DNA of 41,021 nucleotides from Catajapyx aquilonaris. Its lineage: Eukaryota. Numbering within the stretch: position 1 is the first letter of the stretch; each line of letters starts with the position of its first letter. The stretch is taken from contig KZ538908.1 of the NCBI GenBank assembly GCA_000934665.2, forward strand, positions 1 to 41,021. Reading direction: 5' to 3'. A program made the position numbers and the translations under genes. Below the pieces are notes generated by a model, which was not told the DNA's origin, searched no databases, and was given only the letters and a program-made list of their open reading frames with translations. Shown here piece by piece: positions 1,037-31,295 of this stretch.

Positions 1037-1074
1037 TTGATATTAACAGCTCAAATAGACATCCCTTTTTTTTT

Positions 1075-7188: not shown

Positions 7189-7222
7189 TAAGTGTTACAT
7201 CTACAATTTTCATCTTGATTCA

Positions 7223-7379
7223 GGGCGGGTTCGACTGCCTCCTGAAAAATGTCGGCCCGTAAAAGAGCCAGATTAGTTCGTTATTCATTTTTAACAGCGT
7301 GGTTGACAACAATGAATAACAAACTAATCTGGCTCTTTTTCTGGCCGACAAATATTTCGGAAGTCGGTGCAACCCGGCC
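7223..7379. mobile_element. Palindromic Harbinger-type MITE
   Basis: Termini GGGCGGGTT / AACCCGGCC; internal arms aaaagagccagattagtt / aactaatctggctctttt; flanks TCA/TAA. Confidence 0.75.
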
Positions 7380-7477
7380 TAAGTGCTACATCTACAATAA
7401 TTTTTTTCCTGATTAATTGTTACAGCTGGCAACTTTATCATTTTCATCTTTTGTGTTCTTGACTTGTAACACAAGTT

Positions 7478-7693
7478 TTACGACCACCCAGTCCAGGGAG
7501 TGCCGTCGTCAACCTGAAGAGGCTGGTCAGTACCGGTTGTCGTTTTGGCAGTTGCCACTTTGATAAGGTTCTTTTCAGCAGCTTCACACAAGACTTCTTG
7601 CATCTCGACACAATCTTCGAAGTCCATATCATCCTTTGCTGACTCTCCCCAGGAGATGCCTCTTGTTTGATTAATGTCCTCTCCCAGCTCATC
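7478..7693 (-). CDS. SRA gene probable last exon: acidic tail DELGEDINQ...[10 protein letters not shown]
   Basis: Acceptor TTTTATTCTGTTAG; phase-0 open frame of 71 aa plus TAA in sequence I do not recognise as a repeat. There is no homology support, and extra exons in the 7-kb intron cannot be excluded. Confidence 0.6.
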   Translation of the reverse strand, partial: DELGEDINQTRGISWGESAKDDMDFEDCVEMQEVLCEAAEKNLIKVATAKTTTGTDQPLQVDDGTPWTGWS

Positions 7694-10600
7694 CTAACAG
7701 AATAAAATTAATAAACATGCACTGTAGTTGTCTTCAATTTTAAAAATCAGTAACACTAACTTCTGTCATTGCAACATATTTAACCACTACCTCACAATAA
7801 TTCTAAGACCGTTGACCTGGATTATACAAATTTGTTGTGCTCATTCTTTTGACCATTGCTAAGAGTGATTATGCATAGGTTTGTGTGCTTAAAAATAAGC
7901 AGCTTAAATCCAAAGTCACTAACCACTAAGAACATTTCAATTGGAACACCCTGTATGACTCTAAAACCATGCTTTAGTGCAACTAGAAAGAATGAACATC
8001 ATCACTTTGGATCCAGCTCCTATATTTCAGCCTTGAGGGGATGTAAGAGCTTGGTGGGGTGGCTAGTGCTGGTGGTGATAATGGTGGTCCTCACTTGCCT
8101 ACCTAGCATGCAGGGAGAAGCGAATGGGTCCAAATGTAATTTTGCACATTCTTTCCAGCTGCACTACGCCCCCCCCCCACCCACTTGCGCGCCTGCGGCG
8201 CAAATTGGTCCGCTCCCGCACAGGTCCTCCTCAGTCTCTGTAACTGTCCGAGGCCCAGTGCACCTGGCCACCCCACACTTATACTCCACTCTCCGATGCG
8301 AACAGAGCAAGTATTTTTACGCAAAAATTGGTCGGAGCGGGGTGGCATCCGTTTACAGAACCCGTGACATCATCGCTAAAGGTGTGGAGTATGAGAATGG
8401 GTCCTAGGTGACGTATCGTGAGAAAAGGCACTGAGGTGGGATTAGAGTAGATCCCGATTGTCACCAGGTGGGGGGAGGGAGCGCCAGAGAGGGGCTATTG
8501 TTCTCCGGCGGCTTAATGAGGAGCAGATGGACAAAGGTGGCACGTGCAAAAGTCGACTTTTTGCCAAGTCCAAAACGGCTGGGCATTTTGCGATTATGGG
8601 GATTTTTGGCATCGGTAAACCAGAGGCAAGAAATGCAACGGAATTTCGACCAGAGCTCTACGACCTCGGGAAGTGCGAAATCTTTTCTATCCTATATCCT
8701 ATATCTTTGTCGAAGAGGGGCTTTATCAGCCATCGGCTCTTTAGGGAGGAAGTTTGTTTTGCCTGGAACTCATTGCTTTCATTTTACTCTGCTCTTTGCG
8801 ATAGGATAGGGACGGAAGGAAGCGGCTGTGGCCTATTAATTACAGAAACAACTCTGGAATTTTCCTGGATGGACCGTGGGAAACCACAGAAAACCACGGT
8901 CAGAGTTGCCCGACCCGGGATTTGATCCCAGGACCTACCGATTAGCAGTCAGACACCATATCCCCTCCTCCAAACTGCTTCGGTTAGGCAGGTATGGTAT
9001 GGTATGGAGAGGCACTCTGCATCTCCTGATGCCCTCCACACCTTCTGGTTTTGCTCAGCTGCTCATGTACAGTCCCGCTCATAAAGAATGGTACGACTCT
9101 ATGGACGACGTGTTTCTTCTGACTATCCAGCATTATTCCCAACCTGATTTCGTCGTGACACTATGGACAACTTGTCCTAGATCTCTGGCGACCCATATGA
9201 CCCCCNNNNNNNNNNNNNNNNNNNCCCCCCCCCCCCCCGACTTTTTCTGAAATTTTTCATTACCAGAATGTTCAACCTGGTACAATGCTTACATAGATTT
9301 GAGATGAATTTTCCCCCTTAAATTTTCTCACTTTGCCTTGTTTTTTTCTTCTTTTTTTCTTGATTATAATTGCCTTTTCCCAGCCTTCCTCATGGCCCCT
9401 AAAAACACGCTGGTGACCCAGGGGTTGGGAACAGAATAAACATTTTGTTCATAGAGTCGTACCATTCTTTATGAGCGGTACTGTACACTGGGTAGATTCT
9501 GAATTACGGAATCAGTCCAACCCGTTGCTGACACTTTGAGAACAGTCCAATATTTCTGGGCACATGCTGTAATTCTTCACGGGAGATTTCACTACAGCAT
9601 GTGTCCAATTTCTGTAGACATTTCATGAAGTAACCAATTTCACTAAGGGGCTACGACATATATACCGGTCTGGAAACAAGCCCTCTTATCACATAGATCT
9701 TCAGAGTCCCACCCGGCCGCAGATCCCCTAAGTGAATGGAGCAACACCCCTACACTGCGGCGAATTTTTTTTACGATTATTCAGAACGGATGATGAGAAA
9801 ATGGATGCCTACAGGTCTCAGTGAAAAGGAATGAATGGACCATGGCTGTAGAAGACTCAGGTTAGGTCACTCCCCACCCACCCCCTGCCGAGGGATTACG
9901 CACCGGGTGCTCACTTGAGAGCGCCATGAGACATTTCCCAGAGCATTTATGTGGCGAACCTACCGGACTAAGGCTGAACTTTATAGGTACGAAGGGGAGG
10001 GCTACATGCTGGCCCAACAAGGCCGCAGGCGGCCATGTTGGGCCCCCCAATGTAGCCCTCCCCTTCGTACCTATAAAGTTCAGCCTTAGTCCGGTAGGGT
10101 CGCCACATAAATGCTCTGGGAAATGTCTCATGGCGCTCTCAAGTGAGCACCCGGTGCGTAATCCCTCGGCAGGTGATAAGCCCAGAAGATAGGGGTAGTG
10201 TCCGTGGGCTGGAATGGACCACGCCTACCAGATTTGAATTGGCGGTTTGGGAGTCTTGGTCCACCATGTTCCGCCACCAGATTCGATGTGTGCAGATTAG
10301 GAGTAAAAGTAACTAAAGGAAAGGGCCAAGCGCCGCAACTCAAGCCTAGTGGCACGCCACCTAACTACTGATATGCCGCTCTAAGGTCACGGGGGTTTGA
10401 GGGGGAAACCTATATGGAAAAAAAACCGGAGTTGCAGTGGGGTGGTGTCCTCCAGCTAATAAGGAGCCAGTAGCCGACAACTGCAGAAAGTGCATGGACC
10501 CGCCCTAATAAGTGACAGGGGAGAGGCAGTAGAGGCTGCCATGGTCCGCCAAGGTTGCTAGAGACATGTGCCAACATGCCCCAAGCAAAATGTGCCATCA

Positions 10601-13600: not shown

Positions 13601-16600
13601 CTTCCCAGCCACCCATTTGAATCACTAAATTTTGCCACACCGACGTTTTTGGGCTATTAATTTTGCTTGCTCTATTGGACCATCGGTCCGGACACAGTCA
13701 ATACGTTGAGCCTGTGTCAACCTCTTCCTCCTTCCCGACATTTTAAAACTGGACTGAACAGTGAACTAAACTTGAAGGCAGGTCACATACGAATCACGCT
13801 TGCATCTTCTTGGCCCTCCCGCAAGCTGTCTTTCCGTTTTTCAACCAATAAGTTCCCCTTTCCTCACCTTTTACCTTCAAGGCCACAGGCCAGTAGCAAT
13901 TCCAGTAATTGTGACACATAGTATGTTGTCGCATCCTGGGAGGGCCGAGAGTGAACCCGGCTGAAGGGGATATTGCCTGCCCTTCACAGATCGTTCTGAT
14001 TTTTCCCCCGGCAAAAAGTAAGTCGCAGAATTTTGGAAATTTTTTAATGGTTTCAGCTGCACGTCCACATATCGGGAAATATGCGGTAGGGAGATGTGTG
14101 TATTTAAATTCGTGCAGTAAGTGTTTGTTTCAGGTTGTTTTAAATGAATGAAACCTTTGCCCTATGACGTCGCTCAATTAAAATATTACGCGAGTGGCGT
14201 AAATACTCGAAAGGTTTAATACTCAAAGGGTTAATATTCCTGCCCTGAATTTACCAAACTCCCCCCCCCCCAATAGGAGATATCCCCATGTCTTTCCTCC
14301 CCAAGGATAAGAATTGAATTGCCTGAAGTCATGCATCACATTCTTACCCAGGAGAGATGCAAAGTTGTAATACAATAATCTCAATGTCATACTTGGTGAA
14401 TTAAGTGGGCATGATTTTTATTGCAGATTTCTGTGCAGTAGAAGAACAGTTAAGCCGTATTTACATGTGAGCGATCTGACAAGCGATAACATCACTGAGT
14501 AACCAGAATTGTTTGCAGTGAAAATCGATTGTTACTTTCACCTCAAACAATATTGGTTACTGGGGTTACTCAGCGATGTTATCGCTTGTTGAAGACTTTG
14601 CTCGTCAAATTGCTCGCATGTAAACGTGGCTTAAAGGCACAAGCTTATCTAGGGGCACAAGTAATGCAAGCAGCAGCAGCATTTAAATATAAAAATTTGT
14701 AACTGTTCTTACCGGCTCTTCTTCATTTTGTGGAGCTTCACTCGTACTTTCCTAAAAAACAACATACCAACATTAATTTTGCACTCATTTTTGATAATGC
14801 AACAGTCAGTCTCACCTTCACAGACGTCTTCCACACTGGCAATTCCTGATCCTCGCACCTCCGTAACAAATATCGATAAACCATGAAGCCTGACTTGCCC
14901 TTGCAAGCCCAATACATCTCAACCCTGTACAAACCTACATGTAAAAGATGTTATTTAGTACTTCAACACAAATGTAGTATCAGGGACATACCATCATAAC
15001 GATAACCTTCTTCTGGAGCAAATGCACTACTCAGTTTGTACCCTCGGACAACCCTCACTGGGTTGCCTGTCTCGACACTCACACTCAAAGCCAGATTTCC
15101 CGAAGTCAGAGTCTGGTCCATGGATTGAGGGGCAGTGCGGAGGTTCTAAAGGAATAGCATTGGTGTCACTGACAAGTTAGCCCCACATGTAAGAAGAGTA
15201 TGTACATTTTGTTGCAAAATAACAACTATGAGTAATTTCCCGGATGCTTCCTTAGAAGGAGCATCATCATCAATGAAAAGTAATCAGAATTAAATGCAGC
15301 CGGAAAAGGCACCATTATTGCAGTTGGGGGGTGGGGGAGTGTTGACAATTAGGTGGAAAAACATAATTACTCTTTATGAAACTGATCACTGAACAGCTGC
15401 AACCATAACAATGAAGGCAAACTTGGTCAGGAAACCCAAGTCCCATATCCTCCTGAGACCTGGTGTTGTCATATGTCAACATCAGCTAAAAATAATTTGG
15501 CCCCAACTAGTGACGCCCACAGAACTGTAATCTGTTGGTATCCCATGATTACAATCTGGCCTCAATAAGTGTAGCCACCGAGTGTCGAATATCTGACTTT
15601 GGCCGCAAAAATTAAATCACTTATGAAAATGGTGGATGCCGCTGCTGAAGCTAGGCGCTCATCTGATAAGTTTTATTTTTTTACTCATATTTAGTGTGAT
15701 TTTCACAATGCAGTGAATGTCCTCGGATTCAGAAGGAATGCGTATTAGGAAATACGAAAAGATGTGTCTGTGACAATCTTTGCTGCTGTAGAGAACTGGT
15801 AATTTTCTTTTCTTTCCGATTCCATTTAAATCAGTGGTTCCCAACCTTTTCGTGGTGAAGCCCCCCTTTTCGTTTTCACCCAACACTCACCCCCCCCCCC
15901 CTCCTGTCCCCTTCCCCCCAGTCCCAATAAATTTCAGCAAGTTTCTTGAAAGGTATTTTTATAACTGAGGAATGAAAACATGTGAAGAGCACAGGGGAAA
16001 AAGGGGGAATGTCACACAAAAAATGTCCATGAAAAATCGAAGAAATAGCTTTATTTCTTCACGTGTCTAAAGAATAATAGGGATATCTTCACGTCATTAT
16101 ATGCAACTGTCCCTCTTGTACCCATGGAAAGCCTCCAGGTATAAGTGTCACCTGTGCTACTATTGTACTGTGCACTTGGCAGGAACCCCAACGGAATTTG
16201 ACATTCCCCCTTTTTTCCCTGTGCTCTTCATGTGGAAATAGGGGAAACAACAGAAGGGGGTAAGAAGCCCACCGCAGGAGGAATTTTTTGGGAGGGTTCA
16301 AGGTCAAACGAGTTTAGGTGAATGTCGCTGACAAAGTACAGTGGAATCCTCCTATACTGTAAGCACATCGGATACAAGCAAGTAGAAAAGTCGGTCCCTT
16401 CATATTTCCAGCGGCGCCAAGCGGAAGCACGTTACATTATTTTGCTCATTTCTCATGGCCTCACGCCCCNNNNNNNNNNNNNNNNNNNNNNCCCCCCCCC
16501 CCCCGGTTGGGAACCACTGATTTAAATGGACATCCGAAAAAAAATTTTTAGCTGAATGGGTTGTGACTTTTCTTTAAGTGGCTGTACCTAGACACGCATA

Positions 16601-19600
16601 AGGAAGTGTGCTTTGCACTATACAGATCAGTTTTAACCCTAATAAGACGGGCGTCACATAGAAAAATTCTGCTGGCGAAACTGTAGCATTTTTCCACTAT
16701 GTAACGAGGTTTCTGTGTGGGTTTTTAAATTTTCTCTCGTGTAAAAAAATCGCGAGTTTTGGACTACAAAATCGTGCATAAATAAACCGGATTAACCTGA
16801 TTAACTTGAATGAAATCATCTTTTTGCGGCCGCTAAAAAAAAAACTTCAAAAAAAACAAAATCCGACCTTGACCGGCAAATTTTTGGCATACATAGTTGC
16901 CCCCAAACCTCCTCAAGAGATTCCACCCTAAAATTAGTGCAAAAGATGATTCAATAGTTTTAAAATAAATAAATCATGTGTGTAAATGTCAATTATCTGA
17001 TGCCGGAGTCTGCGCACTTCAACCCCGGCCTCAGGCTCGCTGGACGGCGCATGCTCCCCGCCCCTTTTGAATGGCTGAATGTTCACATTTGTGAGGGAGT
17101 GTGTTTGTTTATCATTTCTGCTAAGTTCAGAGATGCCAAGGCTACATACCGATAATTTTTTGTCAAGCAGGCAGAGTGACAAAAAATTGGAGTAGGCGTG
17201 AAACATACGCCTCTGCGCCACCTTGTTATGCATATGAGAGTTTCCACTGCGGACGCATGAGAGGAGGGTCACAGAGATGGCCTCAGGATCAAGCCTGGAC
17301 ACTATACGATCTTATTCACTAGTGTTTTCAAATGTTGTCCCCAAGTCCCAACGAAAGAGAATTTTTTGCAGATACTTGCAAAAACGCGAAAAACCACCCG
17401 TCTTATTAGGGTTAAGCCATAATCTGAAATGACATGATGTGTGGTTGAAACCAGGGGGATACCATGAGAGAGGGATATTTTTTCCTATCCGCCATTGCTC
17501 TTGATGTCCCAGATGATGGGAACGTGCTCTGCAGAGGACTTTTGTGCAGTTCACACTTTCCCACACTTTTACAAGCATTTTATGACTCATCTACATGAAG
17601 GCTCCTAACTGGAAAAGCAGATTTCCCGCAAGCCATAAAAATCAGTCATATTTTATCCTAGTGATTATAATCACTAGGATGAAATATCTTCACAATTAGA
17701 AATAGCAAGCAACAAAACAGCATTATGATTAGCAGGGGATATACGTGGGTTGATTCATAATAGTCCAGGCCCTAAGCGTCTTAACCTTGCATTTTGGGAT
17801 AAGAAGGTGCCACTTGGCACATATGTTCCTTAGGCCTATAGGAGCAATTCCAGAGTTGCAGGCAACTGATCGGCCCCTTAGGTCACGAGTTATGCGGTGT
17901 TGCCAACATGGCCGGGGATGACCTGAGCGTTTTTAACGTTGCATTTTGTGATAAGAAGGTGCCGCTTGGCACATATGTTCCCTAGGCCTGTAGGAGTCGT
18001 TTGAGACATGGCGGCACTTGATCGGCTAATTAGGTCAGGAGTTATGCGGTGTTGCCAACCTGGTCCTGGACCTAAGTGTTTTGTACCATTTTTAACTTTG
18101 CATTTTGGGATTTTGGCAAGAATGTTCCCCCAGGCCTAGAGGTTCCATTTGAGAGTTGGTGGCACCTGATCTGCCCCTTAGATCACGAGTTATGCGGTTA
18201 TGCTTAGGTTCCGGACCAGGTTGGCAACACCGCATAACTCCTGACCTAAGGAGCCAATCAAGTGCCGCCATCTCTCAAATGGATCCTATACACCTAGGGA
18301 ACATGTCTGCCAAGTGGCACCTTCTCATCACGAAGTGCCGAGTTAAAACGCTTAGTTCCCTGATCAGGTTGGCAACACCGCATAACTCGTGACCTAAGGG
18401 GCCGATCAGTTGCCTGCAACTCTGAAATTGCTCCTATAGGTCTAAAGAACATGTGTGCCAAGTGGCACCTTCTTATCCCAAAATGCAAAGTTAAAAATGG
18501 TACAAAACGCTTAGGTCCAGGACCAGGTTGGCAACACCGCATAACTCCTGACCTAATTAGCCGATCAAGTGCCGCCATGTCTCAAACGACTCCTACAGGC
18601 CTAGGGAACATATGTGCCAAGCGGCACCTTCTTATCACAAAATGCAACGTTAAAAACGCTCAGGTCATCCCCGGCCATGTTGGCAACACCGCATAACTCG
18701 TGACCTAAGGGGCCGATCAGTTGCCTGCAACTCTGGAATTGCTCCTATAGGCCTAAGGAACATATGTGCCAAGTGGCACCTTCTTATCCCAAAATGCAAG
18801 GTTAGGCCTGATTTTTGCGCTTAGGGCCCGGACTATAAGTCATGCCGCGTATTTTTGTATTCAAAAATAGTAACTCATACAGAGATGACCTTGGCTGAGA
18901 TCTGAAAATCTGGCGATTACAATTTGATCTGGCATATAGATGTCGCTCATATCGCGAGGGGGGCAGGGAAACTTAGGGGGATCATGAGCCCCCCCACACA
19001 CACACACACCATCGCCCTAAGACGGCCGGACCCTGACGTGCTGGGACCTGTTGGACGCAGCATCCTGGACACTCGGAGATGAACAACACTGGAGCTTGCT
19101 CAAGAGTGTGGGACGAGTCAGAGCACTATGCTTAGGACTCGGAAAGACTGACAGGTCTCAGGAAGTTGGCATCTTCACTGGTTCCTCACCATCTCTTTGA
19201 GATGCAAAAGAGCCACCATTTTGCCTTCGCTAGGAACTCCATTGCATTGAGGGTGATGGTTTTTTCAAACGGTTTGTGGCGATGGATGACACATGGCTGC
19301 AGTCACAGTGTTCTGACTTGTCCCACACTCGAAAGCAAGCTCATGGGTTGTCCATCACCGAGTGTCCAGCATGCAGCGTCCAACAGCTCCATGAATTTAG
19401 AAATACGTGCCATGACTTATGAATCAATCCACGTATTTTAAAAACTGTTTTTCATGTCGAAACACATGGTCAAAACCAGGGATGGAAAAATTACCGCTTC
19501 CTTTCCCATCAGAACCGCTTCTTAAGCTTCCGCTACCGACAACCGCTTCGCAAATGTGGAAGCGCTTAAATACCACTACCGCTTTCAGAACCTATTCGAC

Positions 19601-22600
19601 AATATTCTGTTGCAACCGCTTCTCACTCAGTTGCAAATCCAGGAACCGCTGCGAGAAGCGCTTCTGTGCAGGGATGGAAAAAAGAACCGCTTCCTGAGAA
19701 GCGCTTCTCGCAGCGGTTCCTGGATTTGCAACTGAGTGAGAAGCGCTTCCACATTTGCGAAGCGGTTGTCGGTAGCGGAAGCTTAAGAAGCGGTTCTGAT
19801 GGGAAAGGAAGCGGGAATTTTTCCATCCCTGGCCTCTTCATTTTCTTGGGTGCTGGAGGTGATGTATGCTCAGAGTCGGACATGGTGCATCAGGCGCAGA
19901 AATCGTACTACCTTTCCGCTTGACCTTGCGCTCTGTTATGATGAAGCTGTGCCGCTGTGCGATGTCTTCCGGAAGCCAGTTTGACCAACATATGTCACCA
20001 TTTGACAATTTGCCCATTTGACTGTTTGTGCTCCAGTGTACACTTTTACAGGCAGTGTCGCAGTGAATATCCCCCTTGGGCGAAAAAGAACGAGGAACCG
20101 GTTAAGACACGAGAAGCGCTTCCGAAGAACCGGTAGCATCTTCAAAAAAGGCATCCGATTCCGCTTCTACAACCGCTCCCATGTTCGCAAAGAGCTACCG
20201 GTTACCGGATGCCAAGGGTACCGAGAAATACTGGAAGCGCTTCTTGTACCGGGTCCGGATCGGTATCATAGACGCGGTTCTTTTTCCATCCCTGGTCAAA
20301 ACATGGCATACCTTCGTTTACATTTGTTAATTGTACAGCCCAAATGTTTGTCCAGCCAAACTATGCATTTCATTTTCAGATCGTTAGAAATCTTGAAAGG
20401 CACAAAAACCAAAGAAAGCAAATTTTTGGTACAGATTGAGCCGATCCTTTATACTCAATAAATTCCAAAAACAGAAAATCTCCAAAATTCGAAAGTTTTT
20501 TAAAAGTTCTGATAATTGTCTCACCACAAATGAAAAATCCCATGCTATTGTAACATGACTAGCATCATTACCAGTCTCTCTACATACACAAAATTATTCG
20601 AGATTTATATAAAACTACCTTCAGCGTTTATGTGTACCACTTATGAAGTGTAAATGGATACTTTGGTGGACACCACAATGTTAATTTCGACTAAACCAGT
20701 GATGATACCCATCCCCCAACCATCCACATACCCACTCCAGACTCTCTCTCCCCCTCCTCTGTTTTAAGGGTCTGCAGTAGTAAAAATGCAGTAGAGCAAG
20801 ATGTCTCTTATGAGAGCTAGGGAAGGCAACCTACCAAATGTTTGTACAACAATCGAGAGCAGTTTTTGCCACCATTGCCACGATGCCATGCCTTGCCTTC
20901 CTGCCTCGCATTTGAACCATATAGACTTGTGACTACAAGGTCAACCTTTATCAAGTTTTGTGCTGAATTCCCATGCCCACACAGCTTACTGTGAGGTTTG
21001 CACTACATATGGGTAGGGGTCTCATTTAAAAATATTACACACAATACATATTTACTTTAGGTTTGGCCTTGGTTCCCTTGAGGTCTCTCCCTCCCTCTCC
21101 TGTGTAAGTGAAAACGTCACCATAGTCTGCGTTTTCCTCATATCCCCCAGAAAGTGCCAATGAGTAAGCACCATCACGGCCACGATGAATTCCTGCCACT
21201 GTTGGTGGGTGGATGCCATCGGCACTGCACAATGCGCGGTTCTTCCACCAGTGACCAACTTCAATTCCTGAAAATGGGCAATTTATTAGTCATTGAGATA
21301 CTAGTCATCATATTGTGCATTTTCTTGGGTCAAAGCAGCTCCCACCAACCTCCAGAATCACAACACAATAACATAGAGAGATAAGCAGCTTGGCAGGATG
21401 AGAAGGTGTCAATCTAGCAAGTGATAATTTCTGCAGTAATTACCTCATGTCAAACGCATGGGATGTGACCAGCAGCGTAACAACGTATTTCAGTGGGGGG
21501 TGGGGGGCGGGGGGTGGGGGGGGGGGAAGCAATTTGGTGCCCCCTCCCCCCAGAGCTTATTCAAAGGAATTTTTAGAACTGCACAAAAGGTATGTCCTAC
21601 TAGTCGTAATAGGGGAACTGAGAAAAGTGCCAATACGCCCGCCGCAGGAATTTAAGTGCATGTAATGACAAAGTATACAGTGTAATCCTCCTACAGTAAA
21701 TCCTAGATATAACACTCCTTTTTTTCCGGTCCCTTGATCATCCCCATAAGGCCCAATGGTAAATTTTTCCGCTTATAGTGCTTCCTGCTTTTAAAGTTTT
21801 TCCATATACTGCTCGATTTCCCAGGTCCAGAGATATTTATCACTCATACAACATCAATTTCCGTCGCTTTCCTCCCCATAATCACGATTATGGCAAGGAA
21901 AGTGATGGAAATGTTTTAAATTTCTAATTCGGTTACAGACGTTTTCAAATATTTTGCCGATTTCCCTCCTGTTCAGGGTTTACTTCTTGTCATAAGCAAA
22001 AACCACATGTCAATATGTGACTGTCACCTTTATTAATATTTTTATAGTTGAAAATGTAGGTTTTTGTCGATATTTTTAAAAGACAAAACAATTAAAATCT
22101 CCGCTTCCGTGGAACTTAGGACGCCCGTTCCTTTTTTGTTTTATAGCTCTTTTGCAGACGCTTTCAACTGTACCTTATTACACTTTTATGATGATGATGA
22201 TGATGATGATGATGGATACCCCATGATAGGTCCTCATTTAGTTGACAGTCTTTAATGATTGCCTGTTCTGTGATGGATTTTGATTGTGGGAGGAAATGGG
22301 AGAACCCCGAGAAAACCCACGCGAACACGGAGAGAACCCATCGAAACTCTATAGTCTCTATCCACATAAGTATCTTCTGTCCGACCCGGGGTTCGAACTT
22401 GGGACCTCAAAGGTGGAAAGCGGTGGCTATAACGACTAGGGGCCGTAGTCTGGTGTCTGGGGGTACGAGTCCCAGAAACGGTGGGGTAGCNNNNNNNNNN
22501 NNNNNNNNNNNNNNNNNNNNNNNNNNNNNNNNNNNNNGTCTCCTCACCCACTACCCCTCTGGGGAGCTCGGGATAGCGGCTACCACTCCTGGCCGCATTT

Positions 22601-25600
22601 CTGCGTGCCTGTGGCGTCACAGCACGCCTGGGCCAGCGGGAGCCCTCGACACACCCACATGTCAAGTCCCAGGAGGCAGCAAAAAAAGAGGAGGGCAGTC
22701 GGTTGGCAGTACTTTCTGTTCAGAAAAGAGAGAACGATGTACAAATTGGACAAAGTGCGACATGGAAGCTCTGGTCCTGCCGCTTTTGACTTTCAAAGGG
22801 AATCTCGGGAGGTGTAATGCAAAATTCACGTTCAAATTAAGTATTTTGGGTTCTTCATCTGCTAGGAAGACACATTTCCGGAAAAACCCTCAATCTCAAG
22901 CAGGTTTGAAATGCGGAGGTGCAAATTTAAAAAACTGAACCCTTTATGATAAGCCTCGATGAAGATATTACGTATAACCAAGAGGAGCTATAAGACAGTG
23001 ACTTGGACGCGAATTTCATGATCTATCACGTAAATAGAAATTATACAGTGTATATATCAATTGACTCGCTTTGCGAGCCGGGGGGGCGGAGCCCCACCGG
23101 ACCCCTCCGTGGGGCTGCGCCTGTATTCCGCCTAATCCATCCGGTTACAGAAATCAGTGACGTCACCGGTAGCGATGAGGAGTTTCCGAACGTGCCCTCT
23201 CTGACGTATCGTTCAAAACAGCGCTTGGGATGACAGGTGGGACCATCTGTGACGTATCATTCCAACGGCAGGTTTCAGCTGTGGGTTTGAGTGACAAGCG
23301 GGTGGAGAGGAGTGGGTGGTCCATTGTTCTCGGGGATCCGGGGGAGTTTGCGGATACATTAATTTCGCGATCTCGGGTTTGCGTCTACATTTAATTTGGC
23401 AATCTCCAAAACGGCTGGGAATTTTGCGATTATGAGGATTTTTGGCATCGGTATACCCGAAGCTAGAAATCCAACGGGGTATGTCCGAGATCTCTGCGAC
23501 GCCGGGAAGTGCGAAATCTTTTTCATCATCCTCCTCCTCGTCGGATAGGGGCTTTATATATATTAGAAGATGTTATAAATGGGGAGATGTGGTGGCCGAG
23601 ATGGTAATGTCTCGGCTTGCAGAGTGAAAGGTCTCAGGTTCGATCCCCGCCTGGGAGTTCCCTTTCACCTGCGTCAGGAGGGTCTCTGACCTGCACCTTG
23701 AATAAGGAGGATGTTCCAACAGCTCCCATTCCCATTTCTGAAGAAACTTTCCGAACAGCAAAGACCACATGACAGCAAGGGTTGTCGGGGAAGACAATGG
23801 GTTCCCTCTACAGCAAATCCTTCCTCTTAAGGCGAATTTCTGGGTGGAGATGATGTTGTAATTATGGTATTGCCGTTGCTTTGCTATTTTCAATGCCAAT
23901 TCCGTGCATGTCCATTATCGGTCCATATCCAACAGTTGTCACAGCTTCGACATGGGTCAGGTCGGTTGTAGTACGGGAGGGGGCCTTCTTTAAATTCTTG
24001 TACGAACCTTGCAATGGTAAGATACGGGAGCCAGAATCATCACACGTCTGCACAAGACCTTGATGGTGCTGTCTGGGTGGTGGTGGTGGTGGTGGTGGTG
24101 GTGCAGGACGTGCACGCAACTTTCGCTCTTACGGATGTTGCACCTCGGGTGTTTCACAGCGGGACGTCATAAAAGTATAAAGCTCAAGGTTTTTTTCACA
24201 GTTTTTAACTAAGTACTAGGAGTATCCATGGCCAAAATTTCAAATTTTCGCCGGCCTTGGTGGTCTGGTGGTTAGCCCGCTCACCCCTGGTCACAAAGTT
24301 GTGGGTTCGAACCCGGCCGAGGTCGGTGACTTTTCTCCGGGTGGTAGAAAAGTGAGAGTGCGCCTTCCTTCAGAGGGGAAGTAAAGCAGTCAGTCCCGTG
24401 TGCTTGTCACATTGCGCGAGTGCATGTTAAAGATCCCCAGGGTGACCAACATTCCAGAAGGAGGAAACACCCTCTAGCATCGGTGTTGAGCCTTAGCGGC
24501 AGAAATAGGCCGACATTAAGCCCCACTGAACAGGCCCCCCCTTCGAGATATTTGACCTTGAAATCCGCAAATTTCGAACTTTTTCTAACTGCGGACCGAA
24601 CAATCGGCCAGAAGCGCTTGCAAGCCCGGATTTATTTCACCATGGCTGGATACCCTTCCAGTCAGAGTCCTTGAAAAGAAATATTCCACCCTGGGATTTC
24701 AAGCCCTTTTAGTTTTACAGGCCTTTGAAATTGGAAAAATTTCTCGTTTTGATAGCTATTGAAGCCCATTAAAGTCCCAGTTACAAAGGTTTTATCCTAC
24801 ATATTCTGAAAGGCCAAGATCTCCACTTTCAGGAAGTGAAAACCAGAACATCCTACCTTGAATAGATACCAAATAGTAGCCTTTTTTCAGAACCCTTACA
24901 AATGCTCGTTTTTGCTCGCCGTAGTGAAAAAAAATGAGTATAAATCCAACATGGTGGCAGATAAAAAATTAACAAAAGGTTTCAGCAAGTCAATATCAAG
25001 GCCACCCATGGTGACAATATTAAAAATTAACTAGATGGTCGAGCAACCATCAAATATATAATTGGCTGATTTCACATGGAATGACCCGTACGTGTAAGTA
25101 AAAATCTATGTGATAACAGTATAGCTGGTACTCTGCAGTCCAGTCCTCATCGCATAGAACCTAGATTGTAGGTGGCTGGGGGCGAAGGGGTTAATACACT
25201 TTTGTACATGACAGTCAACAGTACATTACAGTCAACTCCCGATGTACCAGCCTCGGTTATGACAGACTCTTAGTTATAGCAGACTCAAAAGGCTGGTCCC
25301 ACCAGTCTTCCGTAAGGACCTGTGTATTTTCACTCTGGCCCCTCTGGCTGCCGGGGACAACAAGGAAATTACAAGAAAATTACACATTTTTTCTTGGCTC
25401 TGCGTAATTTACGGATTAGCTAATTTTTCATTTCGTGGATAGTTTCATTAATAAGTATGCAGTAGTGTACATTATAGGCATACAGGAGGTAGAAAACTTT
25501 GTGTATGCCTATTCGTTGCAAAAATGACAATTTGGCTATAACTGACCTCGGGTATAACAGACCCAAAGTCTCTTGAAGTCCATTATATCCAGAGTCTGCT

Positions 25601-28600
25601 GTATAACTAATACAACTGACCTTCAATGTCTCCATACACATTAGGCCTCTTCTTCCTAGGACTTTGAACTGGAGATGGCTTGAAATCATCGTCCTGATCT
25701 AGACCTTCTGCCAAAGAGCCACCCTACAAAAAAGTGCAACAATTGAAATGATGTAGTAACAAACAGTTGGGCCAGCTTTAAAAGTGAAACTGGCATAAAA
25801 TCCTAACTACAGTCTAGTGAAACCTGTCAATCAACTTGCTTCATTATATTAAAACTTTCTGAATGGAAGAGGCTCCATTATATGAGGTCATTGCATTAAA
25901 TATTCTCTGTTGGGAGGAGCAAAAGTCCCACAATCCGTAGCCTCAATCCCTGGGAAAGGACCCACAACAAGCACTTAAAAACTATTCTGGAAAAGTTTGT
26001 GGAGATGAGTCCCCTCCTACCACTGCTCCCACTACCTCTCCCCAAGATAGAGTCACATGTATCATGGCTAGTTACAAGGAGTGGGAAAAGCCTCTGCTAG
26101 GTTTGGAGTATTTGGAGACGAAGAGCTAACTGGAGTTTTGTAGCAGTTTCTGCCAGTCTTTTGTGGAGTAACAGGGAGCTAGGTAATTCAGGTCGAGCTG
26201 CACCAATGGCATGATACATGGGAAGATCTACTGCACACATGCACACAAAATAATCAAGGTTTTGTCCCATAAAGGGGGAGCCATCAATGGTCAGGTGATA
26301 CAATACCTAGGGCCGATTTCTCGAACAGTGGTTCAAGTCAGTTTGAACTGGGTATGTGTCTACAGGTGGATTTCATTTAACCTCCTCTTCCAAGTTTGCG
26401 CATTTCACGAACGTTTTCCAACCCTCGGTTATTAGCCAAACCCCATTCCGTTAGAATTGCGCCGTTGCCACATTTTGAGTCCTCCCCATCGCCCAAAACC
26501 GGTTTGAAATGCTGCCCGAGTGTTGAGGGCCAGAGGTTCTTAACTTGGGGTGCGAGCAAGGTGCACCCCTGGACTTAATCTAACTATGAACTTATTCAAT
26601 CACCCCTGGTATAGGGGGTACGACAAGGACCTACTGTCTTCAAATGGGTGCAGAGGCCCGAAAAGGTTAAGAACCCCTGGTTTAGGGGGCGTAAAGAAAC
26701 GCTAGTCAGCAAGTATTGAAGGTGGAGAGAGCGACATTTGAAAGGTGCCAGTGGCTTAAAATCTCAAGACGAGCAGTAGTTGATTTATAGGGGAGACAAT
26801 GTAATTGCGCCTGATGGAATGCTGTTTACACAGTACACAAGTATGAAACTGGATGTGAAATGAATTTTGTGTTTAATCCTTTGTCTCCTGCAGTATTCTG
26901 AACGCTTCATGTGGTGGTTTAAAAAGAGCGCCCTAGGTGAAAATCACTGGATCTGGCACCATTGGTTTCACTCTCGATTCATGCACAAGATTGCGAGATT
27001 GCAGATTGCGAGATTGTCATTCCTCCCCTACGCGCACAACAAGCCTCGTGCTGGGTGGTCAGTATACTATTCTGTAGATGTGTTTGTCTCAAACAAATGC
27101 AACTTTGTTTTTGTGTTAGAAATTTCAGCATATGTAGGTACTGTACTGTACATGTCCAATAATGGCACCCAGCATGTGTTCACTTATCTGGGCAGGATGC
27201 TGTGAGTTAGGTATGGTTAGGACATTCTATAGTACTGGTACCCTGATGGCCATGATGAACATTGTGTGGCCAGAGGACGTTAGGGTGAAACTAATACACT
27301 ACCCCTGAAATAATTCTCAAAAAACTGTCGCCTTGGACAGTCGAAATCGAGAACGGAAAGTCTCCTCATTGTAGGTGTCAAGGGATGGTGTGGTACCTGA
27401 TTACCCTGAATATGCGAGGAGGAGGCAAGACTACATCGAAGACGTCGATGAAAAACTCATCTTCTTCGGATGAGTCTGCGTCCAGACCGACATTCTCATC
27501 TCCCCTCCCAGCACTGCAAACCTGGGGTATTCCCGATAACAGCCGGCAGTCGGGCCATCAGATGTGAACCCAGTTTAAACCTCATCCTGGCTTTACTTTT
27601 GCCTCAAGAAATGGAAATTTCTCTGAACTGGGATTAAACCACAGTTGAACCGGGTTTACATTTGAACCACTGTTTGATAAATCAGCCCCTAGTGCTATTT
27701 CAATCTGCTAAATATTGGAAGTTGTTGCTGGATGTAGATATGTTCTGACAATTTTCAGAAAGGGCGACCTAGCCACAGCTCCTCTCCCTCCCACCCACCC
27801 AATTAGCTTCTAGTACAGTAAAACTTCTATAAGTCGAATCTCCATGGGACAGGGAAAAAACTTCGAGTTATAGAAGATTCGAGTTAGAGAAGTTTGGCGT
27901 TTTTTAAACACAGAACTCTATAAGGAAGCCTACCTTTATATCCAGCGATGAAAGGTGTTCAATACTTAAAAATTACTGTCACTATCACACTTACAATGTT
28001 CCTCGTTGTTTTGTTGTAAAAAAATCTCCATTATGGACATTTGCCTCCTCTTAGATTCAAGGATTCAATTGTCACAATTGAGTCAAACACTACTTTCAGT
28101 ACGGCTGGTAGACGGAGATCAGGAAATGGAGCCTTTCTGTACTATCAGTCCACCAAGAATTGTCGTAGCGGCAGCGCACGAACTACAGTTACGAGCACTT
28201 CTCCCCCCGGAAGTGCTCGTAGACTGTAGTTCGTGCGCTGCCGCTACGACAATTCTTGGTGGACTGATAGTACATGTGGCCTACTCTCGACCCTTCGGCT
28301 GGGAAATGAGACAATTTTCCTTACTCGCCAACATGACCTTCGAATTAGGCAGACTGAAAATGCATTGATATCCCATCGTAAGGCCCTGCCTGCACTTCGA
28401 GTTATGGAGAAATTCGAGTTAGGGAAGTCCATTTCCTATTATTTTATATTGGGACCAACCAAGCTCATAATTTTTACTGTGTTCCATCTGCTCCTGCCTC
28501 TGATTGGTGCTTTATGAAACAGCATCATGTCACATCCCTTTCTAAAAATGGTTCAACTCTACAAAAATGCCTAGCTATTTAAATAAACAATATTAATTTT

Positions 28601-31295
28601 ATAATTCTCTATCAGCCACTCAGTAAAGTTGTTGCAAGCTAAGTGCACTGCTTTCTGTGTTTCCCCAGCCCTCTTCTTGTGGTCAGGTATGGTGAGGCCT
28701 GGAAAACCCCAGAAAGCAGTTAGTTAGAGCTGGTGGTAATGATTAAAAGTGTCATGACATTTACCTGTCATTAATTATTTGTAAGTCCAAGCCTAGCTTG
28801 ACAAATTAAAATTTCTGTGCTTTCCAATCTCTTCTTGCAGCCCTTTCATATATTTAAAAAATTGCAACACAAAGTTGTAAGGTCACCACATTGCTACCCT
28901 TTGGTCTCAGCTGATTGTCACTTTCGCCATTCTTGCTTTAATTTTCTTCATTAACATTCTCTTGCACCCGTTCCACCAAAAAATTCAAGCTCAGGGCAAA
29001 AAAGGTGACCTACAATCTCTGGATCTTATCTGTTGCGATTTTTTAGCCTCTATCCCAGCGGTTCTTAACCTGGTGTGCCCTCACCCCCAGGGGTGCAAGG
29101 TGGTTCCCCTTGGGTGTGAGCAAGGTGCACCTCTGGACTTAGTCTAACTAGGGACTTAATCAATCACCCCTGGTTTAGGGGGGTGCAACAAGGACCAACT
29201 GTCTTCAAAGGGGTGCGGAGGCACGAATATGTTAAGAACCGCTGCTCTATCCAGTATGTTACAACAAGTCTCACAACAATGCCATAGCAAAGTTGGTGAT
29301 TGTAAATTTGGTTAAATTGCAAAAGACAACCTGTGATCGTGTCACACGCCTGGGCCTAGTATTCTCAACAGGGTCGATTGTAGTTCTTCGCTTGCGCTTC
29401 GTTGGTTCCTTTTTAGGAGTATTTTCCCCAGTTGAGACCAAAAACTCTGCAGCATAGGAAGTCCACTGGAAAAGGAAGGAACATTATTATTCACATACCC
29501 CAAATTCAGTGATCAGTGTAGTGACATTTTGTTAATAAATAAAACCTGTTTATTAATTATACAGTATTTCTAATATTGCACTTGGATAAAAGAGTGCTCT
29601 TTCCTTCATAAGTCTCCTTAAAATTAGAAAAATAATGTCTTAGTACTTGTCAGCCAATCAGTGCAGGCCACTCCAGGCAATAATGGCCATGCTGATTTAA
29701 CCAAGGATTTAACACCTGAAGGGCTTCGGCTAGAAAAAGCTCAAGGGGTCATTCCATGTCAAATCATCACAGTTTGGAATTAAAATAGGCCTTGACCCCT
29801 CAGATTTTGATGAAACTTGGTGTATCTAGTGTCCTTACATAGTTATGAATGAAAACCAAAAGAAATAATTTTTTGGCCTACCATTCAAGAGTTATTAAAT
29901 ATTAAATATTCCAATTTTGACTAAAAATTGCTGCGTCTTGAAATACTCAAGTATTATTTTCTCAGGAACCAGATGAGATATAAACCTGGGGAATGTCTCA
30001 TATTGAAGGTCTTTCCATGGGCTTTAATTTGATATGTAACACGGCAAAGGTTATCATATTTATTAAAAAATTTAAACTCAATTAAATCTTTAAATTTAAA
30101 TATTTCAAAAAATGATATTTTTAAAATTTTGAAAAAATTCCCAAAATTACTTTGTACTATCCTCTTGCATCTCCCAAAGTGTCATTTTGGGATCGCTATG
30201 GGATCAGGTGATACAGAGAGTACACGTTTCACACATGCCGGAAAATACCCATCATACCCAATCGAGGTTTTCACAAAAGTCACTTATATTGCCAGTAGCT
30301 TTAAAAATCATGATAGTGCTTAATAAACATTTCATTCTTAGTGTATATCAACTAAATAATTGACTTAAATGTATTTAAAAAATTTAAAAAAAATTTAAAA
30401 AAACATTTGTTTTTTTCGGGGTAAGTTGATGAAACAATTTTTTTCTTATACATTTAAGTCAATTATTTAGTTGATATACACTAAGAATGAAATGTTTATT
30501 AAGCACTATCATGATTTTTAAAGCTACTGGCAATATAAGTGACTTTTGTGAAAACCTCGATTGGGTATGATGGGTATTTTCCGGCGTGTGTGAAACGTGT
30601 ACTCTCTGTATCACCTGATCCCATTGCGATCCCAAAATGACACTTTGGGAGATGCAAGAGGATAGTACAAAGTAATTTTGGGAATTTTTTCAAAATTTTA
30701 AAAATATCATTTTTTGAAATATTTAAATTTAAAGATTTAATTGAGTTTAAATTTTTTAATAAATATGATAACCTCTGCCGTGTTACATATCAAATTAAAG
30801 CCCATGGAAAGACCTTCAATATGAGACATTCCCCAGGTTTATATCTCATCTGGTTCCTGAGAAAATAATACTTGAGTATTTCAAGACGCAGCAATTTTTA
30901 GTCAAAATTGGAATATTTAATAACTCTTGAATGGTAGGCCAAAAAAATTATTTCTTTTGGTTTTCATTCATAACTATGTAAGGACACTAGACACACCAAG
31001 TTTCATCAAAATCTGAGGGGTCAAGGCCTATCGCTGTGATGATTTGACATGGAATGACCCCAAGGGCTATCCCCAAGTCCCCCATGTGTACACACATACG
31101 AGCTTAGCATTTAAACACACATGCAAAAACTGACGGCCACATTGCAACTCAAGAAATAACATGCAATAAATCTTGGCAGCCTGTAATGCATGAATATCTG
31201 CAACACCAACTTACTTTGTCTGCTAGGGCCATTTTCTCTGCATGGCCGCCTTTGTTCTTGAGCTGGGCCGCTCGGAGTTGTTCGTAGTAGGACAT
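7478..31295 (-). CDS. Spliced gene (8 coding exons, 1059 nt, 352 aa) encoding a stand-alone SRA/YDG-domain protein (UHRF1-type SRA, no other UHRF1 domains)
   Basis: Manual splicing of 31295-31215, 29465-29331, 25723-25621, 21267-21056, 15145-14992, 14934-14816, 14751-14713 and 7693-7478. All introns are GT..AG and phases are compatible (0,0,1,0,1,0,0), giving one ORF with a complete SRA domain from VYGDIEGIEVG through [16 protein letters not shown] and GYRYDGLY to YLLRR. Confidence 0.85.
8165..8730 (-). mobile_element. Non-autonomous Helitron-like repeat (same family as 23051-23570)
   Basis: Shared block tccaaaacggctggg.attttgcgattatg.ggatttttggcatcggta...gggaagtgcgaaatctttt...ggggctttat. 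Confidence 0.6.
8790..8984 (-). mobile_element. Degenerate tRNA-derived SINE resembling polyneopteran Lm1/Talua-type SINEs
   Basis: Minus strand: B box gggatcaaatccc, then ggttttctgtggtttccca...ccagg.aaatt...ggccacagccgcttccttcc. Confidence 0.65.
9884..10173. repeat. 290-bp near-perfect GC-rich palindrome without obvious TSD
   Basis: Arms are almost identical; near-mirror-image ORFs 9862..10131(-) and 9926..10192(+). Confidence 0.9.
14453..14631. mobile_element. Short Harbinger-type MITE (family of 6744-7188)
   Basis: agccgtatttacatgtgagc / gctcgcatgtaaacgtggct; TTA/TAA flanks. Confidence 0.75.
14713..14751 (-). CDS. SRA gene 39-nt micro-exon 7: [13 protein letters not shown]
   Basis: Follows a 64-nt intron; acceptor TTTTTAG and donor GTAAGA; symmetric phase 0-0. 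Confidence 0.75.
14816..14934 (-). CDS. SRA gene exon 6: [39 protein letters not shown]
   Basis: C-terminal SRA strands (GKSGF.V.RYLLRR...P.W); follows a 57-nt intron; donor GTGAGA. Confidence 0.93.
14992..15145 (-). CDS. SRA gene exon 5: [51 protein letters not shown](G)
   Basis: Contains the PVRV.RG and GYRYDG (YDG) signatures; acceptor CTTTAG and donor GTATGT. Confidence 0.95.
15832..16519. mobile_element. hAT (Charlie/Buster-like) non-autonomous element, 8-bp TSD ATTTAAAT
   Basis: TIR CAGTGGTTCCCAACC; identical 8-bp flanks; contains an N gap. Confidence 0.88.
16637..17411. mobile_element. piggyBac-type MITE
   Basis: TTAA TSD; TIR CCCTAATAAGACGGG. Confidence 0.88.
17761..18835. mobile_element. 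Foldback element with arms built from ~155-bp tandem modules; Academ-like termini
   Basis: Termini TAGTCCRGGCCCTAAGCG; 3-bp TSD TAA; modules start near 17788, 17939 and 18098 and are mirrored in the right arm. Confidence 0.85.
19043..19390. repeat. Degenerate inverted repeat (~85-bp arms), probable old MITE
   Basis: ctgttggacgcagcatcctggacactcgg / ccgagtgtccagcatgcagcgtccaacag. Confidence 0.7.
19477..20294. mobile_element. hAT/P-like element with 8-bp TSD GTCAAAAC containing an inverted mini-copy of its own family (19669-19831)
   Basis: TIR CAGGGATGGAAAAA occurs four times; many subterminal ACCGCTTC motifs; identical 8-bp outer flanks. Confidence 0.85.
21056..21267 (-). CDS. SRA gene exon 4: core SRA pocket ([27 protein letters not shown]...[32 protein letters not shown])
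   Basis: Clear SRA motifs (VAGIH, GAYS, GGYE, FTYTG.GGRDL); acceptor TTTTCAG and donor GTAAAT. Confidence 0.95.
21694..22170. mobile_element. Degenerate Tigger/pogo-type MITE
   Basis: TA-CAGTAAATCC...CAACTG-TA with the typical subterminal ggtcccttga..cccata..ccaatggtaa. Confidence 0.55.
22189..22445 (-). mobile_element. tRNA-derived SINE with V-domain-like core (family B), (CAT)n tail
   Basis: B box agttcgaaccc; core ttctctccgtgttcgcgtgggttttctcggggttctcccatttcctcccaca. Confidence 0.85.
23051..23570 (-). mobile_element. Non-autonomous Helitron-like element
   Basis: Minus strand starts TCTTCTAATATATATAAAG and ends with GC hairpins (gccccacgg..ccggtggggc; ctcgcaaagcgag); homologous to 8165-8730. 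Confidence 0.65.
23581..23697 (+). mobile_element. 3'-truncated SINE family A copy
   Basis: Near-identical to the head of 3786-3910. Confidence 0.85.
23698..24150 (-). pseudogene. Decayed mariner transposase fragment
   Basis: Minus-strand pieces RKLRAR, TCDDS, DMHGI, PIVFPDN..CHV and [17 protein letters not shown], in mariner order, with frameshifts. Confidence 0.75.
24249..24540 (+). mobile_element. tRNA-derived SINE (family C), possibly with Meta-type core
   Basis: A box tggtctggtgg, B box ggttcgaaccc; core gtcccgtgtgc...gcatgttaaagatcccc. Confidence 0.75.
24541..25087. mobile_element. Right part of a Sola2-like element (same TIR family as 29746-31060)
   Basis: Ends gatttcacatggaatgaccc; left TIR not found. 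Confidence 0.55.
25229..25601. mobile_element. Tigger/pogo-type MITE adjacent to the exon 3 donor
   Basis: TA-CAGTCAACTCCCGAT ... ATCCAGAGTCTGCTG-TA; repeated cctcggttat..cagac motifs. Confidence 0.65.
25621..25723 (-). CDS. SRA gene exon 3: [34 protein letters not shown](G)
   Basis: Acceptor TTTTTTGTAG and donor G|GTCAGT. The phase-1 end joins exon 4 to form VYGDIEGIEVG, the start of the SRA domain. Confidence 0.88.
26310..27688. mobile_element. Harbinger-like non-autonomous element, CTA TSD
   Basis: Termini GGGCCGATTTCTCGAACAGTGGTTCAA / TTGAACCACTGTTTGATAAATCAGCCC; hosts a hAT MITE. Confidence 0.7.
26531..26679. mobile_element. hAT MITE (family of 29056-29244) nested in the Harbinger-like element
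   Basis: cagaggttcttaac / gttaagaacccctg; internal sequence shared with 29056-29244. Confidence 0.8.
27816..28479. mobile_element. Tigger/pogo-type MITE
   Basis: TA-CAGTAAAACTTC start; repeated ttcgagtta motifs at both ends; ends tttttactg. Confidence 0.7.
28142..28270. mobile_element. 129-bp near-perfect hairpin mini-MITE, TA flanks, nested in the Tigger-like MITE
   Basis: ctatcagtccaccaagaattgtcgtagcggcagcgcacgaactacagt and its exact reverse complement. Confidence 0.88.
29056..29244. mobile_element. hAT MITE, 8-bp TSD CTCTATCC
   Basis: TIR CAGCGGTTCTTAAC; perfect TSD. Confidence 0.92.
29331..29465 (-). CDS. SRA gene exon 2: [45 protein letters not shown] (basic, NLS-like)
   Basis: Strong acceptor TTCCTTCCTTTTCCAG; 135 nt open in phase 0; weaker donor CAG|GTTGTC. 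Confidence 0.7.
29746..31060. mobile_element. 1.3-kb foldback element (~620-bp arms), Sola2-like, 4-bp TSD CAAG
   Basis: TIR GGGTCATTCCATGTCAAATCATCACAG; identical mirror ORFs 30129..30323(+) and 30499..30693(-); AT-rich ~90-bp centre. Confidence 0.9.
31215..31295 (-). CDS. SRA gene coding exon 1: [27 protein letters not shown]
   Basis: ATG in ACAATGT context and consensus donor AAA|GTAAGT, phase 0. It lies at the edge of a CpG-rich region, and the YEQLR helix resembles the N-termini I recall for SRA-only proteins. Confidence 0.75.

Follow-up and report, generated by a model that had tools for sequence, protein, structure and literature searches.

Maintenance of DNA methylation in animals is explained through the joint action of UHRF1 and DNMT1, and the characterised proteins UHRF1 and UHRF2 have the domain order UBL-TTD-PHD-SRA-RING. 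A 41,021-nt stretch from Catajapyx aquilonaris (assembly GCA_000934665.2, contig KZ538908.1, positions 1-41,021; hereafter the window) holds SRA-like peptides scattered over its minus strand between 31295 and 7478, which raises the question of whether these belong to a UHRF1-type gene or to a protein built around the SRA domain alone, and what such a protein would do. Our analysis makes it probable that the locus is an expressed, single-copy, eight-exon gene for an SRA-only, Uhf1-like protein of about 352 aa, and that this protein is a nuclear reader that flips 5-methylcytosine (5mC) without having a ligase.

The window is repeat-rich and contains five assembly gaps, with a GC content of about 0.43 and a CpG observed/expected ratio of 0.62. 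The SRA-like peptides were first spotted in stop-to-stop frames of the minus strand, and exon ends were then set by reading the splice sites. The resulting gene (31295..7478, minus strand) comprises eight exons, numbered E1, E2 and E4-E9, with a total of 1059 nt, equivalent to 352 codons and a stop. All seven introns have GT...AG borders and measure, from 5' to 3', 1749, 3607, 4353, 5910, 57, 64 and 7019 nt. The number of exons, the protein length and both ends of the gene (ATG at 31295, stop at 7478) match exactly those put forward in a sequence-only reading of the window that preceded this work.

Exon 1 (31215..31295; this and all following exons lie on the minus strand) carries the ATG at 31295 and 27 codons, ends at a GTAAGT donor and encodes a degenerate half of the N-terminal helix motif discussed below. 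Exon 2 (29331..29465), whose placement we infer from an AG acceptor, phase 0/0 and a weak GTTGTC donor, would encode a basic, NLS-like linker with a KRKRR run and an RRVTR stretch (RRSxR in the family). Exon 4 (25621..25723; AG/GT, phase 1 end) encodes an acidic-then-basic linker that ends in the RPNxYG lead-in to the SRA domain; it was recovered by a family profile (positions 99-123, E 0.037) after a relaxed tblastn of 120 relatives against the window had returned 3425 matches, mostly chance, and no additional exons. The SRA domain is divided among exon 5 (21056..21267), which holds its first part with the thumb, the 5mC pocket and the start of the finger loop, exon 6 (14992..15145), which holds the middle with the NLRTAPQS finger end and the PVRV strand, and exon 7 (14816..14934), which follows the 57-nt intron and completes the domain. 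Exon 8 (14713..14751; AG/GT, phase 0/0), preceded by the 64-nt intron, adds 13 codons of acidic character, and exon 9 (7478..7693) encodes the acidic tail and the TAA stop. As translated from this model, the predicted protein consists of a short N-terminal helix remnant, a basic NLS-like linker, a complete SRA/YDG domain and an acidic tail. The basic linker of the earlier reading is borne out by the 79 aa encoded by E2 and E4 (pI 9.69, 16 K+R), and its acidic tail by a pI of 4.05 over the last 95 aa (23 D+E vs 7 K+R).

Evidence for the splicing of this gene comes from sequencing runs compared with positions 7522-27521, a stretch that leaves E1 and E2 outside. These were four DNA-like runs, X1-X3 among them, and a small public run, X5, that is not on record as RNA and in which splicing is argued from record coordinates and bin depths. 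Record 25 of X5 (847 nt) aligns through letters 391-561 on 7522-7692 and through letters 719-847 on 14990-15118. The gap of 157 letters between the two blocks equals E8 (39) plus E7 (119) plus one base of E9, less two ambiguous bases, which are the GT of the donor and the identical GT that starts E7 and therefore fit both sides. The alignment of this record stops at the E9 acceptor (7692), whereas DNA contigs continue to 7941. Record 30 of X5 (853 nt) aligns on 21056-21266 only, that is, on exon 5, leaving 47 letters unaligned towards E6 and 594 in the upstream direction. The X1-X3 DNA contigs are colinear through the exon-intron borders, over 7522-7941, 14532-15004 and 20243-21648. Bin depths in X5 of 1.79, 2.69 and 1.35 equal the contig depth multiplied by 171, 211 and about 106 bases for E9, E5 and E4, respectively, and the last value would thus represent about 106 nt in the exon 4 bin at the depth of record 30.

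Since intron-less X5 contigs fit E5 and E6-E7-E8-E9 to the base while DNA contigs span the introns, we conclude that this gene is expressed and its introns are removed; that the intron-less form stems from a retrocopy in the individual concerned, and not from a transcript, is less likely. The X5 contigs agree with the original model at E5 and across E6-E7-E8-E9, and the joins E1-E2-E4-E5 are predicted from splice sites and reading frame. In the DNA runs, the bins of exons E4, E5 and E9 have single-copy depth.

A candidate ninth exon, absent from the first model, lies between E2 and E4 (27405..27521, minus strand; 117 nt, 39 codons, in frame, AG/GT). It would encode an acidic SSEEDE stretch and bring the protein to 391 aa. 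This candidate matches neither a Pfam family nor the family profile, and the X5 depth in bin 26865-27521 is 0.84 vs the 1.51 expected for all 117 nt in record 30, so that the full-length form is unsupported and was rejected. There are shorter in-frame forms of 60-63 nt, and the depth of 0.84 may come from one of these or from an unrelated contig, which cannot be told apart.

A moderately CpG-rich patch upstream of the ATG (31296..31800, minus strand) is a possible promoter or 5' UTR. The sequence-only reading had described the ATG exon as lying beside a CpG-rich promoter; GC content (0.49-0.55) and CpG observed/expected (0.88-1.10, vs 0.62 window-wide) are indeed raised over 31201-31800, but comparable patches are present at other places in the window. 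A scan for bacterial-type promoters and terminators near the ATG was set aside as not meaningful for an animal gene. At the opposite end, a putative 3' UTR (7132..7477, minus strand) extends at least as far as X5 record 25, whose 390 letters below 7522 are positioned by assuming colinearity; the minus strand has no AATAAA near the end of this record, the nearest being at 6628.

Several mobile or repetitive elements share the window with the gene. Non-LTR retrotransposon frames occupy 1036-3573 (+), downstream of the gene and on the opposite strand, with matches to RVT_1, the LINE reverse transcriptase, at 1036-2199 and 2203-2724 (+). Inverted repeats are found within introns at 29900-30922 (arms of 483 nt, 99%), 17782-18804 (330 nt, 100%) and 9884-10173 (124 nt, 99%), with several further diverged copies at 17.7-18.8 kb, and look like foldback or MITE-like elements. 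The summed contig depth of the DNA runs is 12,790-50,837 at 8189-9522 and 22196-24196, vs 13-53 on the E4, E5 and E9 bins, so these two regions represent very high-copy repeat families; both adjoin assembly gaps (N runs 9206-9224 and 22491-22537).

Against the Pfam profile SAD_SRA (PF02182, cut-off 30.7 bits), E5 scores 72.7 bits (profile 5-73), E6 45.6 bits (profile 75-120) and E7 32.0 bits (profile 118-148 of 148). The SRA domain is therefore complete, as the three exons, all above the cut-off, cover profile positions 5-148 of 148; this is what the sequence-only reading had claimed, naming the same profile as the means of checking it. SRA is the sole Pfam family in the 352-aa protein, as it is in the relatives P0084, P0014 and P0073. 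No UBL, TTD, PHD or RING domain was found by Pfam in 133 frames of at least 50 aa from both flanks, nor in 125 frames of at least 62 aa at 7400-31400, where only the SRA exons match; exons shorter than 50 aa in the flanks or 62 aa in the gene would escape these scans. The same 258 frames contain no SET, RING-PHD or HNH family, and the flank matches consist of RVT_1 of a LINE and MotB_plug below its cut-off (17.1 vs 24 bits).

To relate this protein to others, the largest SRA exon was used as query, which gave 469 relatives at E<=0.001. Among the best 120 of these, 112 have SRA as their sole Pfam domain (158-527 aa), and the remaining eight are 183-1098 aa long, three of them with a second family. 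The hosts of the SRA-only proteins listed are molluscs, echinoderms, hemichordates, barnacles, Daphnia, thrips, whitefly, damselflies, a sea spider, cnidarians, a sponge, a brachiopod, a bryozoan, an annelid and many basidiomycete and chytrid fungi; no vertebrate occurs among the best 120 of the 469. The best relative among the matches listed is 74% identical in one exon, so there is no close orthologue for a rate test. The SRA-only family runs to hundreds of proteins of 300-500 aa and is already in databases under the names 'YDG domain-containing' or 'UHRF1-like'. The proposal that the window encodes a type of protein functionally uncharacterised in animals agrees with the literature searched, but the type itself is widely annotated and has a characterised fungal member.

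When the search was repeated on proteins 600 aa or longer, canonical UHRF1 proteins (UBL, TTD, PHD, SRA) scored no higher than 175 bits and six long SRA-only forms from animals no lower than 230 bits, while fungal SRA proteins of that length that lack UHRF1 domains spanned the intervening range (161-264 bits), in each case among the matches listed. At least 12 species carry both kinds of protein among these matches, namely Bemisia, Lycorma, Potamilus, Solemya, Mizuhopecten, Physella, Batillaria, Ptychodera, Glandiceps, Lingula, Pomacea and Bulinus. Some family members depart from the short form. The hemipteran members P0121, P0124, P0125 and P0030 of the SRA-only clade reach 741-1109 aa and still show SRA alone in Pfam; in many polypore fungi (P0126-P0155) an SRA domain of this type is joined to PF25540, and in one Tulasnella protein (P0150) its partner is the uracil-DNA-glycosylase family domain PF03167, either as real fusions or as gene-model joins.

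A tree of 82 rows and 186 columns was built from the window SRA region and 81 labelled rows from 236 proteins, as a quick search with SH-aLRT support only, without bootstrap, and rooted on one RING-SRA-PHD protein of unknown origin. Within it, the SRA-only proteins form one clade of 56 rows (43 animal, 12 fungal and the window; SH-aLRT 100, stem 1.08), and the 25 UHRF1 rows form a separate clade (SH-aLRT 90) outside which the window falls. A phylogeny with fungal and invertebrate SRA-only proteins had been suggested as a further check on the first model, and its outcome is in keeping with that model. The window joins barnacle and Daphnia rows, although weakly (SH-aLRT 80), and its end branch measures 0.67 vs a median of 0.16; this weakly supported position would suggest a crustacean-like arthropod sooner than an insect. 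Judged by its sequence, the window protein is a local member of an old opisthokont SRA-only ('Uhf1-like') family, a UHRF1 paralogue and not a fragment.

Members of this family share an N-terminal motif, S/x-YE-xx-R-xx-NI-xx-N-xxx-L-xx-LGL, followed by RRSxR. In a search with a 48-position profile built from 21 N-termini of family members, window exon 1 came out top of 2077 frames, yet at 8.2 bits and E 0.26 this match is not significant. The exon matches the first half of the motif only (S-Y-YE-QL-R), as opposed to the full motif kept in fungal, Daphnia and barnacle SRA-only rows, and RRVTR in E2 resembles RRSxR, which is nearly invariant in the motif-family consensus. A structure model of a Daphnia relative (41-row alignment, mean pLDDT 70) has a confident N-terminal helix at 11-39, then a disordered linker, and a disordered tail; block-mean pLDDT over its SRA domain is 75-97, except in the finger loop (blocks 211-230: 52 and 45). 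The best Foldseek match of this model is the UHRF1 SRA on hemimethylated DNA (E 2e-16, TM 0.67-0.74 by target length). The N-terminal helix of the sequence-only reading thus finds a counterpart in the Daphnia homologue, but window exon 1 retains only the first half of the corresponding motif.

The motif is also found beyond SRA proteins. Its profile matches 2863 eukaryotic cluster representatives at E<=0.001, of which 21 reach E<=1e-10; oomycetes, a basidiomycete yeast and a streptophyte alga are among the sources, and some of the matching proteins have 2-4 motif copies. Among 49 longer matches scanned, SRA is present in eight and an MGMT-type DNA-binding domain in one, a cryptophyte protein; one carries a PARP-type zinc finger below threshold, four have unrelated Pfam matches below curated cut-offs and 35 have no Pfam family. 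No second domain common to the non-SRA carriers emerged from 53 proteins scanned at E<=0.1, and an Atlas look-up of one such carrier gave only bacterial-type SRA/DUF3427 candidates at 0.85-0.88, which is below the accepted level.

The SRA domain itself was compared with human UHRF1, and residue numbers were transferred from the full-length PDB entry of that protein by phmmer alignment. V446, G465, Y466, D469, Y478 and T479 of UHRF1 are residues that we take, from the 2008 UHRF1 SRA structures, to form the base-flipping thumb and 5mC pocket. The window protein keeps V446, G465, Y466, Y478 and T479, along with R484 and the finger's asparagine and arginine. It has N at position 469 (among 137 family rows, 120 have D and 17 have N), E at 481 (E in 73 and S in 56 of the 137), T at 445, where H is mostly replaced by T in the family, and P at 443 in place of R, a residue found in only 2 of the 137 rows. 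In the family profile alignment, the N and R of the UHRF1 NKR are kept in all 137 rows, and K490 is replaced by L in all 137. The finger loop of the SRA-only clade is six residues longer than that of UHRF1 and ends in an invariant 10-residue stretch; 137 of 237 rows contain the NLRT[AS]PQ pattern, and UHRF1 domains occur in none of these 137. Both the extended finger ending and GYRYDGLY, in place of GNRYDGIY, are found in the window protein, and the SRA-only clade, window included, lacks the roughly 17 additional residues that UHRF1 has ahead of the PVRV strand.

Across 136 family rows, 58 columns show at least 95% invariance. The window protein agrees with the family at 57 of these, with a D to E replacement as the sole change, and 36 of the 136 rows keep as few or fewer of the 58. 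Retention of these near-invariant positions argues for purifying selection on the SRA exons, the long branch notwithstanding.

Taken together with the fold modelled for the Daphnia relative, the retained flipping and pocket residues lead us to the following proposal. The SRA-only protein would enter the nucleus and bind DNA, its SRA pocket would take a flipped 5mC, most likely from a hemimethylated CpG, and its non-SRA parts may hold or recruit a partner. Since RING is missing, the protein is unable to recruit DNMT1 by ubiquitylating H3 or PAF15 on its own, and it would therefore act as an adaptor or as a site-occupying reader. Its most likely role would be that of a non-ligase protein that reads 5mC flipped out of hemimethylated CpG. 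Counting against a 5mC reader are the D469N and S481E changes and the rare P443 in the window protein, the long end branch (0.67), the half-lost N-terminal motif, and a finger loop that is longer than in UHRF1 and is predicted with low confidence in the Daphnia model.

These departures could instead mean that the SRA-only pocket reads another flipped base, such as 5-hydroxymethylcytosine, unmodified cytosine or a damaged base, and that the protein is a repair or demethylation sensor without a role in maintenance. The glutamate at 481 shared by the window and just over half of the family rows, the asparagine at 469, the universal leucine at 490 and the six additional finger residues would all fit such a change of specificity, as would the presence of the N-terminal motif on the cryptophyte MGMT-type protein and on the sub-threshold PARP-type zinc-finger protein. 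However, nothing has changed at the stacking tyrosines, at G465 and T479, at the V446 thumb or at the finger's N and R, the fungal SRA-only rows, which mostly have S at 481, belong to the same clade, and one fungal SRA-only protein binds hemimethylated DNA (10.1101/149385). The MGMT and PARP links, moreover, amount to one protein each, and we consider it unlikely that the pocket is devoted to a base other than 5mC.

The motif distribution invites a broader and equally doubtful conjecture, in which the N-terminal helix and RRSxR form a general eukaryotic docking unit that ties sensors of modified or damaged bases to one shared partner. The animal and fungal SRA-only proteins would then be a single ancient reader line, distinct from UHRF1 and with a specificity of its own realized through the extended finger and E481, and the window protein would be a crustacean-like member that is losing the unit.

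A different possibility accepts 5mC as the ligand and changes its consequence, in that a protein occupying hemimethylated sites without a ligase may shield them from UHRF1 and DNMT1 and so lower maintenance methylation. An intact SRA domain with no RING, PHD or TTD would suit such a competitor or decoy, as would the at least 12 species that, among the matches listed, keep an SRA-only protein alongside canonical UHRF1. But the conserved non-SRA parts, namely the N-terminal helix motif, RRSxR and the basic linker, point to partners and not to mere occupancy, and the SRA-only protein of Cryptococcus is reported to promote 5mC and not to oppose it (10.1101/149385); the odds are thus well against a decoy.

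The sequence-only reading had also held that the exons are not a fragment of UHRF1. The converse, that they are part of a larger multi-domain gene of UHRF1 type with further exons beyond the window or overlooked within it, may appeal to introns of up to 7 kb with only 9.7 kb upstream in the window, to CATAG/ACAATG before the ATG, which is in principle a possible acceptor, and to the 594 letters of X5 record 30 upstream of E5. Yet an in-frame TAG stands two codons 5' of the ATG at 31295, 594 nt is too short for UBL, TTD and PHD together, and the family N-terminal motif stands at the very start (residue 1-15) of most of the 55 relatives listed. At the 3' end, the spliced X5 contig enters E9 and contains its in-frame stop. 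With the SRA domain placed in the SRA-only clade and outside canonical UHRF1, the UHRF1 internal insert missing, no UHRF1 domain in the 133 and 125 frames scanned, and SRA-only and UHRF1-type proteins coexisting in the species named above, the original claim stands and a larger UHRF1-type gene is very improbable. That the locus is a decaying or non-functional copy transcribed by chance, for which the long end branch, the degenerate N-terminal motif and the rare P at 443 might speak, is barely credible given an ORF that runs intact through eight canonically spliced exons, the retention of all but one of the 58 near-invariant positions (the exception being D to E), and single-copy exon depth in the DNA runs.

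We therefore favor an expressed SRA-only reader of flipped 5mC. For this one gene the analysis brings confirmation, not surprise, and the locus provides a gene model with expression evidence for an SRA-only member in an arthropod-like genome. One fungal protein of the family has been characterised, whereas its animal proteins had been noticed but not studied. Besides UHRF1, many invertebrates carry a putative SRA reader that lacks a ligase, is conserved between sponges and hemichordates and is shared with fungi, and the features that set the family as a whole apart from UHRF1, namely the longer finger, S481E and the missing insert, offer concrete binding hypotheses.

Among known systems, the plant SUVH and ORTH (VIM) proteins and bacterial SRA-HNH proteins have the 5mC-flipping SRA fold in common with the window protein (PDB matches SUVH5, SUVH6 and TagI). 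Similarity to the SUVH and TagI type is far weaker than to UHRF1 (E 1e-7 to 1e-5 vs 1e-21), and the window gene lacks their SET, RING or HNH. The SRA domains of UHRF1 and UHRF2 are closer, with 46-55% identity, the same fold as judged from the model of the Daphnia relative, and a shared thumb valine, stacking tyrosines and finger N and R. They differ in that the window gene has neither UBL, TTD, PHD and RING nor the insert of about 17 residues, its finger is six residues longer, K490L and H445T are present, and the two fall in separate clades. The nearest rows in the tree are the Daphnia and barnacle proteins P0084, P0078, P0057, P0014 and P0009, which are 65-69% identical over the SRA domain and show the same order of helix, linker, SRA and tail, with unrelated tail sequences.

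In animals, the full-text literature searched yielded no functional study of an SRA-only member, in line with the sequence-only reading, and gave only a passing mention of an octopus protein. This is YDG-OCTBM (Ocbimv22020196m) of Octopus bimaculoides, a short protein with an SRA-like domain only that occurs alongside canonical UHRF1 and is said to lack the CpG-recognition residues (PMC9476566). The O. bimaculoides SRA-only protein P0073 (358 aa), putatively the same protein, falls in the window's clade, and, at variance with the octopus paper, all 137 rows retain the finger N and R if the six-residue insertion is allowed for.

The closest functional precedent is fungal. Cryptococcus neoformans Uhf1 (CNAG_00677) has an SRA domain and no Tudor or RING, and gel shifts show selective binding to hemimethylated DNA in vitro (10.1101/149385). 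In the same study, Uhf1 acts with Dnmt5 and with H3K9me/HP1, and its deletion alone has almost no effect on 5mC, whereas deletion combined with loss of Clr4 lowers symmetric CG methylation from 31% to 11% of wild type (10.1101/149385). The near absence of a 5mC effect on single deletion indicates that even the characterised relative has a subtle role. Fungal SRA-only rows mostly have S at 481 and retain the full N-terminal motif, unlike the window protein with its E and its half motif. To our knowledge, animals are without Dnmt5. In the tree, CNAG_00677 is represented by another tremellomycete, Trichosporon, which stands in for Cryptococcus, and the fungal SRA-only proteins, Trichosporon among them, share with the window protein both its clade and its extended finger ending.
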